Made by a program: the position numbers and the translations under genes. This document shows positions 4,750-62,520 of a stretch of 64,000 nt of DNA, one piece after another (positions within the stretch are counted from its first letter, which is position 1; the number at the start of each line of letters is the position of its first letter). Where the stretch lies: contig OX597819.1 of assembly GCA_951406725.2 (NCBI GenBank), positions 91,326,001 through 91,390,000 on the forward strand. Reading direction: 5' to 3'. This DNA comes from Octopus vulgaris (taxonomy: Eukaryota). The notes below the pieces were generated by a model that saw only the letters and a list, made by a program, of their open reading frames with translations, was not told where the DNA came from and searched no databases.

Positions 4750-4792
4750 GCACGGACTGCAGTTTCTGGGTATTGACCTGTCATCAGCGCAC
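4750..4792 (-). ncRNA. Minimal type I hammerhead ribozyme
   Basis: Minus strand GUGCG-CUGAUGA-ca GGU caau ACC ca-GAAA-C UGCA G-UC-CGUGC; 5-bp stem I (2 GU), palindromic ACUGCAGU stem III; base of stem II mismatched. Confidence 0.75.
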
Positions 4793-4860
4793 GACAATCA
4801 CAGGTTTTCGATGGAAGGGTCCCAATGCAAATACATATATCCTTTTTCCAGTGATCTTGA

Positions 4861-4980
4861 AAAAGTGTTAACAAGCAATAATAAATCTCTGAACAAGGTA
4901 TAGACAGTAACTGCACGACAATGTGCAGTTACTGTCTATACTTTGTTCTGAGATTTATTATTGCTTGTTTTACACTCTTT
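4861..4980. repeat. Near-perfect inverted repeat (arms 4861-4916 and 4923-4980, 6-nt loop)
   Basis: acaagcaataataaatctctgaacaaggtatagacagtaactgcac / gtgcagttactgtctatactttgttctgagatttattattgcttgt. Confidence 0.95.
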
Positions 4981-6335
4981 TACTTAATTTTTTGTTGAAT
5001 TGAATATATATATATATATATATATATATATATACACACCTATATTTCAGTGAAACAAAGTATTACTTACTCTGGGCATAAGCCACAGGTCATGCACTAG
5101 TTATAGTTAGACTCAACTAACCCAAATTTGTTAACTGCCAGCATCTTTCAGGCTGAAATATGATACTAATCAGTGAAATATCAATATAGCTAGGATAGCT
5201 TTTGTTCTACACCATCAGTTGTTTTATCAATAGACCTTTTAAAACATTACACTTATTACAAACAAATGTTACCATACTAACCTAAATCCTTTTCCTAACT
5301 CTTCTTTATAAAGATAACTCTAAATCTAGCTATTTATAGTTTGAGCTGAATAAAACTAAAATAACAACATCAACAAAAATAATAGCATCACCTTCACAAT
5401 ATGTTTTGTTGCATTCATTTGTAGCACTTAGGCTTTCTATAAAACAATGAGAAGATTTATCGAAATATTTATTTTCCTTTAATGAGCATATTCCAATAAA
5501 TACAGAATGTAATGGCTTTTCCTAGTTTTTCTTCTACATTTAATTTATTTATTTGTAAAAATCTGGAATAACAGAATGGCAACAACAAACTATTTTAAAA
5601 AAAAATACAAACAGAGATAAAATATTTCTTTGAAGGGAAAGCAGGGAAAATAATTTTCACTTCATAAAAAGTCTCCTGTGTTCTTTAAGATAAACAGCTT
5701 CTGGTTCATTGGGACTAAATAAAAGTGGTTTTCTCTCACCAGTGAAAGTAAAGTGATACATAATTATACACACATGTTCAATTTACTCACTGAACAGAAA
5801 CTACATTCTGAAAATATAAGCTACATACTATGAAGTGTCTCTATATCAAAGAGACAAAGTTACTCTTGATCACCTTGCGGAACATATGGAAAACTACTTT
5901 TTTAATACTTATAAATGATAGTGCAGTGAATTTACAGAAGCAGAAAACCAATAACAAAGAATTTATGGAATAATTTTTTTCATTGCTAGGTTAGTGTTTG
6001 AAACATAAATCAACATGAAATTTTGGTGGGAACTTTTAACACGAATCACTTTCAAACAGAAAGGATTGAACTAAAGTACTAATAGTTTCCTCAAGAGATT
6101 TAGTATCAAAATGGTTAATCTTACTTTAATAGGATTACTGCCATACCTGACTGACTGTTGAGTCAATAAATTAAGTATCAGTAACATATTGGGATCAGGT
6201 CAATGGTCTGCAAACTATATCTGTACAGAAATTTCCTGTGTTATGTCAAAAGAATGCGAGGAAAATTAGTTGAATTGTAACAAGACAGGAAAGAGAAATA
6301 GATACTATCGCATTTAGTTTGTATATCAAACAATA

Positions 6336-6706
6336 TTCTTTTATTCTTTTACTTGTTTCAGCCATGCTGGAGCACCGCCCTTAGTCAAAGAAATTGACCT
6401 CAGGACTTTTTCTCTGTAAGTCTAGCCCTTATTCTATCAGTCTCTTTTGTCAAACTGCTAAGTTTCGGGGACGTAAACACACTAGCATCGGTTGTCAAGC
6501 GATGGAGGGGGGACAAACACAGAAACATATATATATATATATATATGACAAGCTTCTTTCAGTTTCCGTCAACCAAATCCACTCACATGGCTTTGATCAG
6601 CCCAAGGATATAGTAGAAGACACTTGCCCAAGTTGCCACGTAGTGGGACTGAAACCAGAACTACGTGGTTAGGAAGCAAGCTTCTTACCACAGCCACACC
6701 TGTGCC
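6336..6706 (-). mobile_element. CORE-like tRNA SINE, near full length
   Basis: Reverse complement of the recurring head (ggctgtggtaagaagcttgcttcc), cttgggcaagtgtcttctac core and aagtaaaagaata tail. Confidence 0.85.
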
Positions 6707-7077
6707 TATAAAGTTAAATAACATAAAGGTTTCTTTTACCTCTCTCAGAAACTATTGGTAATATTACAATTGACTCAATCAAGTATGTCTATGAAACAAC
6801 AGAAAAAAAACACCCATTGTATCAAAGAAATCAATATCAAGTCAACAAGAGAGCCTCTACATGATCACATATTTTACTAGAAACCACAGCTATAACTTCA
6901 AAAATCACCCTAATATCTTAAATATAGAAAAGACATCTTACATAATTAGTCCAGGATAGCCCTAAAAAGGGAGAATGGCCAGTGAGAATGCCTTTGAATA
7001 TAGGCCTCAATTATGCAAGCCCAATATGGAGAATGTTAGCATTGGATACAACAAAAGAAAATGTAAGTTATACATAT

Positions 7078-7296
7078 TTATTTCTTTATTGCCCACAGGA
7101 GGCTAAACACAGAGAGGACAAACAAAGGCTTAAGTCGGTTACATTGACCCCAGTGCATAACTGGTACTTAATTTATCGACCCCGAAAGGATGAAAGGCAA
7201 AGTCAACCTTGGCGGAATTTGAACTCAAAACATAACGGCAGTCGAAATACCGCTAAGCATTTCACCCGACATGCTAACGATTCTGCCAGCTCGCCG
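7078..7296 (-). mobile_element. tRNA-derived SINE with Meta-like domain
   Basis: cccagtgcataactggtacttaatttatcgaccccgaaaggatgaaaggcaaagtcaac; homologous to 27823-28058. Confidence 0.85.
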
Positions 7297-59722: not shown

Positions 59723-60963
59723 GGTGACAGACAAACACAGACAAAAAGACACACACTTACATGCACACACACACACACACACACACACACACACACACAC
59801 ACACACACACACACACACACACACACACACACACACATATAAATTATAAATGGCAATTTCTTTCTGTCTGTCTGTTACCATCATAGTGCCTAAACCACTA
59901 AACAACCAAATGAAACTTTGCATACATGCTACAGTTCAATTATAGGCTAAATGGGAAAATTATATGACAAAATGAGAAGGTTGCAAATGAGAAGGTTGCA
60001 AAAAGTACAAGTCTAAGGGAAAGGTAGTAGCAGAGAGTGGGTGACTTATATCAGTGAAGGTGAGAACAGCAGTAAGAATGGGATGATAACGTTAATTCAG
60101 CTATCATATACATATGACGCTGCATACATACTTTTGTAAATACATATACATATATAACACACACATAGAAGGTGGTTGTGAGGAATAAATAGCTTTAAGT
60201 AGGGATAAGGTACATGGCTTTTCTGCTGTCAACCTCAAAGAAACACTCACACACAGACACATACACATACATACATACATACATATATATACATATGTAC
60301 ATACATACATACATACATATGTCTACTATACACCATTTTAAAATCGTGATTACCTGTGTGTACATTTGTAAATGTGTGTGTGAGTGTGTGTGATGTCCTA
60401 TAACTTTCTCTCTCTCTTCTTTTGTTGGGTATTCCCTGTTGCTGTCACATATTATGATATTCTAAAATTACGTCAAAATTTTCAAATTTGGTATATTGAA
60501 ATAATTCTATACATTAAATCTGATTTTGTCATTTATTTGTTCCAGAAAAATTGCAGAAAAATGTTACTGCGGTTTAAAATTTAATCGATTTTACCTAATC
60601 AGAAAACAGAATTTGGAAGCTGGCATTTTCTGCATGATAGCTGTCTATCACGAAATGAAAGCACAATCATTAGGAGGAGGAGTTTTTTATTAAACAAAAG
60701 CAAAGCATTACAATGACCAAAGTTGTATGAACTTCTGAAGTTTTAATGAATAAAGTCATGTGAAACAGTCAAACAGACATGTAAATAATTTGAAAAGATA
60801 AAAATTCCTCAACAAAGATTTTGGCGAAAAATTGCACAAATCTGTCCTAATCAACGGGCCTATCTGTTGAGGAAGGCATGCTCTGACATGGAATGAATAA
60901 AAATTTATATAAGACATTTTATTGTAAAAATTGCCTGGCAATGACGGGCTATTCAGCGAGTAT

Positions 60964-61520
60964 ATCATCATCATCATTTAATGTCCGCTTTCCATGCTAG
61001 CATGGGTTGGACGATTTGACTGAGGTCTGGCAAACCAGACTCCAATCTGATCTGGCAGAGTTTCTACAGCTGGATGCCCTTCCTAACGCCAACCACTCCG
61101 AGAGTGTAGTGGGTGCTTTTACATGTCACCGGTATGAGGGCTAGTTTGGTGGTACTGGCAACGGCCACGCCCAAATGGTGCTTTTTACGTGCCACCTGCA
61201 CAGGAGCCAGTCCAGCGGCACTGGCGACGACCTCACTTGAATATTTCACATGCCACCGGCACAAGTGCTAGTAAGGCGACACGGTAACGATCACACTTGA
61301 ATGGTGTGCTTAACGTGCCATCGGCACGAAGGCCAGCTTGTTGCTCTGGCAACGATCTCACTCGTATGGTACTCTTAGCGCTCCACTAGCAACGGATGCC
61401 AGTCACCGAATTTGATTTCGACTTCGATTTCACTTGCCTCAACTGGTCTTCCCAAGCAGAGTTTAGTGTCCAATGAAGAAAAGGCACGCACAAGTGGACT
61501 GGTTACACCCCTAGCATAGG
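60964..61520 (-). mobile_element. RTE 3' UTR/tail element with internal ~65-bp repeats
   Basis: Matches 54244-54600; gtgcttttacgtgccacc repeated. Confidence 0.85.
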
Positions 61521-61564
61521 GGTGTATATATATATATGTATGTATATATATATATATGTATAAA

Positions 61565-62105
61565 ACTTATATATAAAATGTACAAAAGGGAACAAGAACG
61601 CAAACTACACAAAGAGACGACACAAAAAAACAGACAGGTCATTCAAAGCCTCTAATCTTCAGTCAGGAACCGGATCATCTTAGCAATTTTGGCTGATTAA
61701 TCTTGATATCGCTCCGATCCAGCCAACCCCAAGGAAAAACTAAGCTCCGAGCATTAGATTTCTTGGAAAAAGGATCGAATGTATACGAAACAAAGACAGA
61801 AAACTGGACGATGCCACACGAATATAAATACAAGAAACAAAAAATAAAAATAAAAAACAAGAATAGTAATAACAGGACAGCGGGAGTCTTACGACTTCAG
61901 ATAATTTAACTTATCTTGGCTGGCGTATTTTGAAAAAATGCCTTTGCGGCAGACGGAGACAACAGTGTTAACATGGCAGCGGTCAAAGGCGAAAAGACCA
62001 GTTGAACAGCAGTCACATGACAGGAGGGAAGAAGAGAGAGAAAAAAAGGTTGGGGGCAAGGAATCAAAGAGAGAGAGAAAGAAAGGGACAACAATGGTGC
62101 AAAGT
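61565..62105. mobile_element. Unclassified dispersed element in (TA)n
   Basis: Homolog of 11140-11830. Confidence 0.7.
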
Positions 62106-62139
62106 AATATATATATATATATATATATATATATATATA

Positions 62140-62520
62140 TGTACAATTCTATATTTAAGAGATGAGGAATTATGTACACTATTTACATTTGATGGATATT
62201 TGCCCTCATCTGGTTTGCTGTTAACACAACGTTTCAGCTGATATACCCTCCAGCATTCATCAGGTGTCTTGGGGAAATTTTGAACCTGAGTTGTCATTCC
62301 TAAGGTATTTTTTGATGTTGTTGTTATTGTTATTATTATTATTATTATTATTATTATTATTATTATTATTAATCGAACTCAGAAACTTGGGGTTAGTAGC
62401 TCGCGCTCTTAACCACTATGCCCATGGGCATATGGCATAGTGGTTAAGAGTGCAGGCTACTAACCCCAAGATTTCAAGTCCAATTCCAGGCAGTGACCTG
62501 AATAATAATAATAAAAATAA
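62140..62520 (-). mobile_element. tRNA-headed SINE-like element carrying an HHR, with a head-to-head inverted second head
   Basis: Minus strand: A box ggcatagtggttaag, B box gagttcgatt, (AAT)n, then HHR; a plus-strand copy of the head at 62426-62520. Confidence 0.75.
62223..62268 (-). ncRNA. Minimal type I hammerhead ribozyme
   Basis: GACAC-CUGAUGA-au GCUG gaggguauau CAGC u-GAAA-CG-UU-GUGUU; palindrome AACGUU. Confidence 0.7.

Follow-up and report, generated by a model that had tools for sequence, protein, structure and literature searches.

What does it mean that a single 64-kb stretch of octopus DNA holds nine hammerhead-ribozyme motifs, and what are the elements that carry them? The stretch, hereafter the window (all 64,000 nucleotides at G000:C6:91,326,001-91,390,000, on contig OX597819.1 of the 2.8-Gb Octopus vulgaris genome), is dense in repeats and microsatellites. 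A preliminary description, made from its letters alone, had noted the motifs in about seven elements and had taken them for a diverse set of non-autonomous RNAs mobilized by Penelope-like elements (PLEs). All nine motifs are found where they had been placed, and they sort into seven elements, named here A (at 4750), B (13903 and 42470), C (22076), D (42905 and 43435), E (44228), F (59276) and G (62223; Table 1). Our reading, to which we give a probability of roughly 0.85, is that these loci are mostly decayed hammerheads at the 3' ends of PLEs: five are ends of protein-coding elements, three belong to tandem units that lack an open reading frame (ORF) and probably owe their movement to these same enzymes, and one, C, is unassigned. 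The hammerheads are real, mostly fossil and largely accounted for by known Penelope biology; as first stated, the finding is the expected by-product of a Penelope-rich genome.

The motifs were tested against the type I hammerhead core (C3 U4 G5 A6 N7 G8 A9, G12 A13 A14 A15.1, U16.1 H17). A genome-wide motif search with a control, which the preliminary description had proposed, puts their frequency far above a reversed-pattern background: the short-helix core pattern CTGANGA N8-20 CGAAACGT has 16,444 genomic matches compared with 149 for its reversed control, a 110-fold excess, and a pattern allowing a long helix II has 49,271 compared with 10,237. By the latter pattern the window holds 3 matches where the genome average is 1.1, and it is no unusual hammerhead hotspot; the same search lists many more hammerhead families across the genome than the seven elements of the window. 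Six of these seven are multicopy families, which together cover eight of the nine loci. The majority sequence of each family pairs in stems I–III, with the helices open at stem I, and its core is canonical in five families: in single aligned copies the canonical core occurs in 30/32 for A, 15/32 for D, 12/34 for E, 17/36 for F and 35/55 for G, and in 0/31 for B, which has U at position 6. Each family was sampled through the 30 sequences that best match a window copy, which biases the samples towards long, similar copies; this bias counts, with the points gathered further below, against our reading. Could the motifs be chance matches in AT-rich, repeat-dense DNA? None of the 150 Rfam matches listed for the window, out of 162 at E<=5, is a hammerhead; Rfam likewise has no hammerhead in one G copy and none at gathering score in 10 related loci; a strict stem scan, which had 0 matches in 20 shuffles, is passed by the two B copies alone; and C has a single other genomic match. 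Against this stand the 110-fold excess and the pairing of the family majority sequences in all three helices, and we consider chance an extremely improbable explanation overall, one that is refuted for A, B, D, E, F and G and may still apply to C.

Sequence comparison indicates that five loci (B twice, E, F and G) are 5'-truncated 3' ends of protein-coding PLEs. The 3' end is constant among copies of these families and the 5' end varies, and the longer copies run on into coding sequence: B, F and G into reverse transcriptase (RT) and GIY-YIG endonuclease frames, E into GIY-YIG. The link to PLEs drawn in the preliminary description is thereby borne out, as is its statement that the window itself holds no Penelope ORF, which tblastn confirmed. 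Because longer copies continue into RT and/or GIY-YIG frames, however, the five loci are not independent non-autonomous RNAs, and that description fits A, D (three loci) and possibly the short copies of G. A 10-kb extension of the first loci of B, E and F gave no ORF, since these were short copies and Hydra was absent from the proteins used; the ORF links of these families were obtained by searching with the 5'-most parts of long copies.

In B, similarity to RT or GIY-YIG lies upstream, in sense, in 11 of 30 longer copies, and the translation of one locus (L333) contains a CX4CxxC linker (CSRPRCRTC) and GIY-YIG. Both marks of the Neptune clade are found: a CX2-5CxxC linker before GIY-YIG and a (TA)n end, the latter in 25/30 loci. 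The older B copy in the window is 79% identical to 42413-42615. We had also considered B as a short interspersed element (SINE) of fixed length, which is ruled out by the RT/GIY-YIG similarity upstream of its longer copies. The main Neptune family of this genome has a 781-amino-acid ORF plus an upstream frame of 360-480 amino acids, and its 3' untranslated regions (UTRs; L010, L012, L013, L016, L021, L027) contain a hammerhead with the compensatory U3-A8 core.

For E, Hydra-like GIY-YIG similarity lies upstream, in sense, in 9/30 longer copies (two being duplicates of one locus), and the link reached the endonuclease part only. In F, the 5' ends of the copies scatter across more than 2 kb, and in one locus (L315) about 3 kb of UTR connects F with RT and GIY-YIG frames, the latter C-terminal; parts of the same link are present in L314 and L318, and relatives of F, 73-76% identical, lie directly upstream of Hydra-type ORFs in L446, L448 and L449. 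The window copy of F holds no whole ribozyme, because its two halves lie on opposite strands. All the motifs by which Craig et al. 2021 (PMC8557442) define Hydra, in a scheme in which the linker is lost in Penelope/Poseidon, are present in the 981-amino-acid frame of L455, namely RWK, DKT in place of DKG and a CxCX5C linker; this frame has no CCHH, has CxxC and CxH near its end and is 68% identical to the F-linked RT. (Here and below, statements about published work refer to those passages of the papers that were available to us.) In RT with C-terminal GIY-YIG, clade motifs and 5' truncation, our elements resemble the published Neptune, Hydra and Penelope/Poseidon clades. Hydra as published is short (<3 kb) and has few families (PMC8557442), whereas here its ORFs are about 980 amino acids long, the UTRs measure 1.8-3 kb, the tail is near 100 nucleotides (nt) and the clade is heavily expanded, with 10,529 first-look candidates and many near-identical frames of about 980 amino acids. 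These frames carry a long Asn-rich insert between RT and endonuclease (L455, G000:C6:134,012,064-134,015,801). Intact ORFs of both the 781-amino-acid Neptune type and the about 980-amino-acid Hydra type occur in the genome and, with matching ends, provide material for in vitro work. Two further structures involve Hydra sequence: a near-perfect 2.2-kb palindrome (98.5%) that adjoins an F copy on its upstream side and includes the remnant of a Hydra-like endonuclease (L319:5905-8078), and another hammerhead-bearing partial-tandem unit in (TA)n right behind an intact Hydra element (L473:sense 2000-2650).

The unit of family G comes after an RT and GIY-YIG frame in 4/5 long loci, and the translations of two loci (L510, L511) have a DKG motif plus a C-terminal GIY-YIG without zinc-finger linker, the Penelope/Poseidon layout; Pfam left the short G endonuclease fragments unrecognized. 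The unit opens with a tRNA-like head of 75 nt that starts within the last codons of the ORF and has its A box at +8 and its B box at +53, and 25/25 loci reaching the end of the ORF continue into head-like sequence. The ORF sequence upstream of the head overturned an alternative that we had considered, G as a free-standing SINE without partner. A 29-mer from the head has 1,170 exact genomic matches. Among the first 30 of these by position (two being one locus), the hammerhead body comes next in 25 and an inverted arm is present in 22; 28/30 copies begin between -20 and +16 of the head start, and the other 2 extend more than 400 nt into the ORF. Copies that pass the head start end anywhere up to 1.5 kb. 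The head on the inverted arm in the window is 88% identical to that of another locus (L236). ARAGORN with relaxed settings (-ps85) called 11 heads in 60 loci and with default settings none; the Rfam tRNA model had no match to the head in ten loci and one G copy, and a pattern search found no source tRNA gene.

We favour, with some reserve, a start of RNA polymerase III (Pol III) at this head. We also lean slightly towards the fuller proposal that a Penelope/Poseidon element captured a tRNA-derived promoter just behind its ORF and makes from its own 3' end a hammerhead RNA of ~260 nt, a SINE that it inserts itself, in many cases as head-to-head pairs with priming on both strands, with the U6 core of B being either a new variant or a sign that cutting is dispensable. 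If true, G would be a Penelope element producing SINE-like RNA from an internal tRNA promoter. The 5' ends could also pile up because the RT stops, or cDNAs anneal, at a palindrome overlapping the head start, and Pol III would then play no part. An imperfect 12-nt palindrome does cross the head start and is found at many arm junctions, inverted arms are as frequent among head loci as noted above, no discrete short RNA appears in the reads, and the Rfam tRNA model misses the head. Single-arm copies start at the head too, however (L245, L246, L255, L256, L262); the A and B boxes stand at tRNA spacing, with a T4 run in only 1/14 copies (part checked); and a tRNA-like structure should presumably halt an RT travelling 3' to 5' before it is copied, not afterwards. 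We regard the palindrome as a possible but somewhat doubtful cause of the pile-up.

The closest published relatives of the G arrangement differ in what surrounds the tRNA-like segment. Like Schistosoma Sm-alpha/Sj-alpha (PMC2770079, PMC6765202), G is a short repeat of high copy number in which a hammerhead comes after a tRNA-like segment, in G a putative Pol III promoter; unlike in Sm-alpha, the segment lies within an autonomous element, directly behind the ORF, an arrangement that also sets G apart from known Poseidon-type elements. G copies bear a PLE tail and inversion signatures, whereas the Sm-alpha passages of those two papers name no mobilizing partner. Helenus (Kojima 2024, PMC10886601) likewise has a tRNA-derived A/B-box segment inside a retroelement terminal repeat, but its members are non-autonomous LTR (long terminal repeat) elements moved by Copia-type partners, and the passages on it describe no ribozyme. 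The tRNA-like cassette of G and the fixed U6 core of B had both escaped the preliminary description, and we found neither a tRNA cassette inside a Penelope element nor a U6 core described in the literature searched, which took in few subscription papers and neither Repbase nor supplements. G may correspond to an octopus SINE that already has a name, or to an entry in Repbase; octopus SINEs are named, without sequences, in PMC4758252 and PMC4824008. In some loci (L244, L364, L369, L480) the (AAT)n tract of G is broken by truncated copies of another, apparently AAT-targeting retroelement, which we presume from its resemblance to be of the R4/Dong kind. In the window, a different repeat has a tRNA-like head of its own (36538-36607, minus strand), scoring 25.7 bits with the Rfam tRNA model, below the gathering score.

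By their sequence, A and D (three loci) look non-autonomous, either retrozyme-like or non-autonomous PLEs. In A, which has 4,196 first-look candidates in the genome, the sequence upstream of the unit is the unit's own 3' end in 24/29 other copies; two hammerheads are present at 2/30 loci, and the sampled copies are mostly one-motif partial tandems. In D the two window hammerheads stand in tandem 530 nt apart, and 14/29 other loci wrap at the same junction (five of the 29 being duplicates of one locus). Folded as a circle, four natural copies of A beat their shuffles, with z from -2.7 to -4.7. The search for autonomous PLEs sharing each pseudo-LTR (pLTR), another check proposed earlier, thus succeeded in part: coding links are found for B, E, F and G and none was identified for A or D. 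Neptune loci adjoining copies of A, F and D (L045, L036, L037) were considered as links and rejected, as (TA)n or unrelated sequence intervenes. For C, two DNA searches and one pattern search gave one other genomic match only, and no family was built.

These properties bear on the reading of the preliminary description, in which each of the seven elements is an independent, non-autonomous ribozyme RNA, in effect a retrozyme, that moves with enzymes taken from Penelope elements. A and D are indeed ORF-less wrapping units, of 353 and 530 nt; the circular fold of A is better than that of shuffles; and G copies are mostly short with one start place. The same reading is hard to square with the spread of 5' ends and with B, E, F and G being continuous with RT and/or GIY-YIG frames in longer copies, which by sequence already contradicts it for four families, and we judge it quite unlikely. 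Metazoan retrozymes and their PLE origin have been described (Cervera and de la Pena 2020, PMC7229834; PMC7761336), and the genomes sampled in a more recent retrozyme study (Li et al. 2026, 10.64898/2026.07.22.740005) include no mollusc in the passages considered. Like non-LTR retrozymes (PMC7229834; 10.64898/2026.07.22.740005), A and D are ORF-less, carry a type I hammerhead, stand head to tail and are under 45% GC (A, 42-44%); they are also comparable to non-autonomous Chlamys such as MRC1 (PMC8557442). Unlike retrozymes, they are mostly one-hammerhead partial tandems, not arrays, and are known here from DNA; D, at 530 nt, is longer than the 170-400 nt of invertebrate retrozymes and is not unusually structured.

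Table 1. Elements, hammerhead motifs and inverted duplications of the window (positions counted from its first letter).
Element	Feature	Positions	Strand	Remarks
A	ORF-less 353-nt unit with type I hammerhead	4576..4985	-	short inverted arm at 5' end
A	hammerhead	4749..4792	-	canonical core; 8-nt palindromic stem III
A	inversion	4860-4980		87% identity
B	older copy, probable truncated 3' end of Neptune-type element	13812..13986	-
B	hammerhead	13903-13938	-	U at position 6
C	two decayed hammerhead remnants on opposite strands	22076..22154		one inverted repeat centred on 22115; 58/79 bases self-complementary
C	hammerhead motifs	22081-22148	both
B	probable Neptune-type 3' end	42403..42596	+	ends in (TA)n
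B	hammerhead	42470-42505	+	CUGUAGA core
D	two head-to-tail copies of ORF-less 530-nt unit	42636..43618	-	with inverted arm 43550-43618
D	hammerhead	42906-42968	-
D	hammerhead	43436-43499	-
D	inversion	43550-43618		93% identity
E	probable truncated 3' end of Hydra-like endonuclease element	44118..44398	+	inverted arm 44118-44210
E	hammerhead	44234-44324	+	loop II about 60 nt
E	inversion	44118-44419
F	probable Hydra-clade element end (pLTR) with inverted arm	59142..59403	-
F	hammerhead, divided	59277-59359	split	GAAA..UH half 59277-59298 (-); CUGAAGA half 59345-59359 (+)
F	inversion	59304-59403
G	long arm	62141..62423	-	partial tRNA-like head 62371-62423, (AAT)n, hammerhead, tail, (TA)n
G	hammerhead	62223-62268	-
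G	inverted arm	62426..62520	+	whole tRNA-like head 62426-62500, (AAT)n; interrupted by another repeat
G	inversion	62342-62520

The six inverted duplications noted earlier are all present (Table 1), and their structure suggests how they arose. Inverted arms occur at 7/29 loci of A, 11/30 of E and, within 700 nt, 0/30 of B. Across unselected loci, the 3' ends of G are bimodal, near 86 and 113, about 27 nt apart; the RNA reads show these two ends too, as genomic junctions. With one tail-to-tail pair excluded, 18/21 head-to-head G pairs combine a long with a short 3' end and 0/21 combine two long ends. Their outer flanks share 8-13 nt in 12/21 pairs, compared with 1.4% for random flanks, a comparison that includes 4-5 nt of the element end, so that the true duplications are slightly shorter. 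The F pairs are long plus short in 16/16 cases, with ends about 100 nt apart, the long arm there being selected by the query. We infer that each inverted pair arose in a single insertion with priming at both nicks, and not by folding back later. In vitro, nicking and extension of both strands have been seen with a Poseidon protein, with two internal RNA start sites bounding the tail (PMC11167929), and long-plus-short head-to-head pairs within one direct repeat offer genomic support for such both-strand, two-start-site priming. Published PLEs of these clades likewise include inverted 5'-truncated copies with the tail at one end, and Neptune and Hydra likewise target (TA)n (PMC8557442).

The preliminary description had almost all elements abutting (TA)n. 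In the window this stands, 8/8 elements besides C lying within 19 nt of (TA)5, and C at 89 nt; genome-wide the link depends on the family. Per 30 loci, with the window copy counted and a background of 7.7%, (TA)n adjacency is seen at 26 for F, 25 for B, 14 for D, 10 for A, 8 for E and 3 for G: strong for F and B, moderate for D, A and E, and near background for G. In the window, 4/10 SINE copies that have no hammerhead also lie within 25 nt of (TA)5. Common SINE-like repeats of this kind (55365-55829 and 59402-59722) form long inverted duplications as well, several of them abutting (TA)n, and such repeats may share a similar insertion chemistry.

The mechanism we propose would run as follows. 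The endonuclease would nick AT-rich or (TA)n DNA on both strands, and the RT would prime at each nick from one of two internal RNA start sites and usually stop early, leaving a short stub that would always carry the hammerhead; two cDNAs joined head to head would give the 'fold-back'. A and D would likely be copied from circular or dimeric RNA, and short G copies likely from RNA that Pol III would begin at the tRNA-like segment. Cleavage by the hammerhead would require either a dimer or the protein of the element, as reported for other PLEs, among them one with protein-assisted cleavage (Frangieh et al. 2024, PMC11167929). After insertion, most copies would decay neutrally.

Several points weigh against our reading. 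First, clades were assigned by motifs, with no tree. Second, for A and D no autonomous partner was identified, and their dependence on PLEs is argued from structure alone; PLE-like protein matches within 1.5 kb occur at 2/30 A loci and 5/60 D loci and are not common between copies, and the fold of D is no better than that of shuffles (z -1.65). Third, no intact G-family ORF was seen, the longest being 569 amino acids among 150 scored. Finally, RNA reads over a G copy, from three runs that are possibly not of the species of the window, have none of their ends at the cut site, their ends pile up nowhere and no discrete G RNA is seen among them, so that read ends at the predicted site, proposed earlier as a check, did not appear. 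These reads cover G on both mate orientations, the libraries looking unstranded or the element lying in both orientations, and about 85% continue into unlike flanks.

How intact are the ribozymes themselves? A canonical core lies on one strand at six loci (A, C on its plus strand, D twice, E and G). Set beside its family, each window copy of A, D and G has lost stem pairing: one stem II pair in A, the first two stem I pairs in each D copy and the closing pair of stem II in G. By sequence, then, the window copies are mostly damaged and are not callable as working ribozymes. Covariation of the stems, suggested earlier as a check, is clear once, in a stem I pair of D that reads T-A in 15 of 32 copies and C-G in 10; variation inside families is otherwise mostly one-sided decay. 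Stem III, which had been given as 1-2 bp, is not always so short, with palindromes spanning 4 to 8 nt. The basal pair of stem II is not G10.1-C11.1 but a mismatch or wobble (C.A, U.G, U.U) in A, E, F and L045:5800-5850.

Much of this is familiar from PLEs. The pLTR hammerheads of Cervera and de la Pena 2014 (PMC4209133) include single motifs from truncated elements and opposite-strand pairs, and ours resemble them in being type I with a palindromic stem III, in the U3-A8 variant, in an extra base after A9 (here in B and G), in numbering thousands per genome, and in occurring mostly as single motifs of truncated elements with opposite-strand pairs a few hundred bases apart. They differ from the hammerheads described in the passages of that paper in a higher count (one pattern has at least 49,271 matches, of which background makes up about a fifth), in helix II loops of up to 60-70 nt (E, F), in the fixed U6 of B and in the mismatch or wobble at the stem II base of A, E and F. 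Hammerheads had already been counted in a cephalopod, the giant squid, with 235 Rfam hammerhead_1 matches (PMC6962438).

The core of B raises the question of what the hammerhead is for. The B motif has 16,305 exact genomic matches; among the first 100 listed, 97 have U at position 6 (a CUGUNGA core), and all four bases occur at position 7. Two readings suggest themselves: the hammerhead tolerates U6 as a variant, or its fold has been preserved for some other function. A natural A6C variant at the same position has low activity (PMC3088659), and the term A6U is absent from the main text of that paper. The fold might be kept as a protein-binding or RT-positioning signal, with cleavage dispensable. 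Such a role would suit a family amplified to at least 16,305 copies with U6 in nearly all of those first listed, the low activity of A6C, and the report that catalytic mutants left in vitro insertion unaffected and that RNA sequencing gave no ends at the site (PMC11167929), a result matched by our reads over G. It would not account for the maintenance of the canonical core in other families (A and G above all), for the compensatory U3-A8 core that a Neptune family here maintains, or for position 7 of B varying freely, as it does in working hammerheads. We hold the signal role as a tentative but credible alternative; it is compatible with the loci being decayed PLE ends and concerns the role of the motif only. 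B thus offers a natural test of the open question of whether a PLE hammerhead must cut.

Other decayed reading frames lie in the window at 51076-51462, 57286-57850 and 54865-55386; the first two presumably derive from a DDE transposase, and the third reads like what we take to be an RTE-type long interspersed nuclear element.

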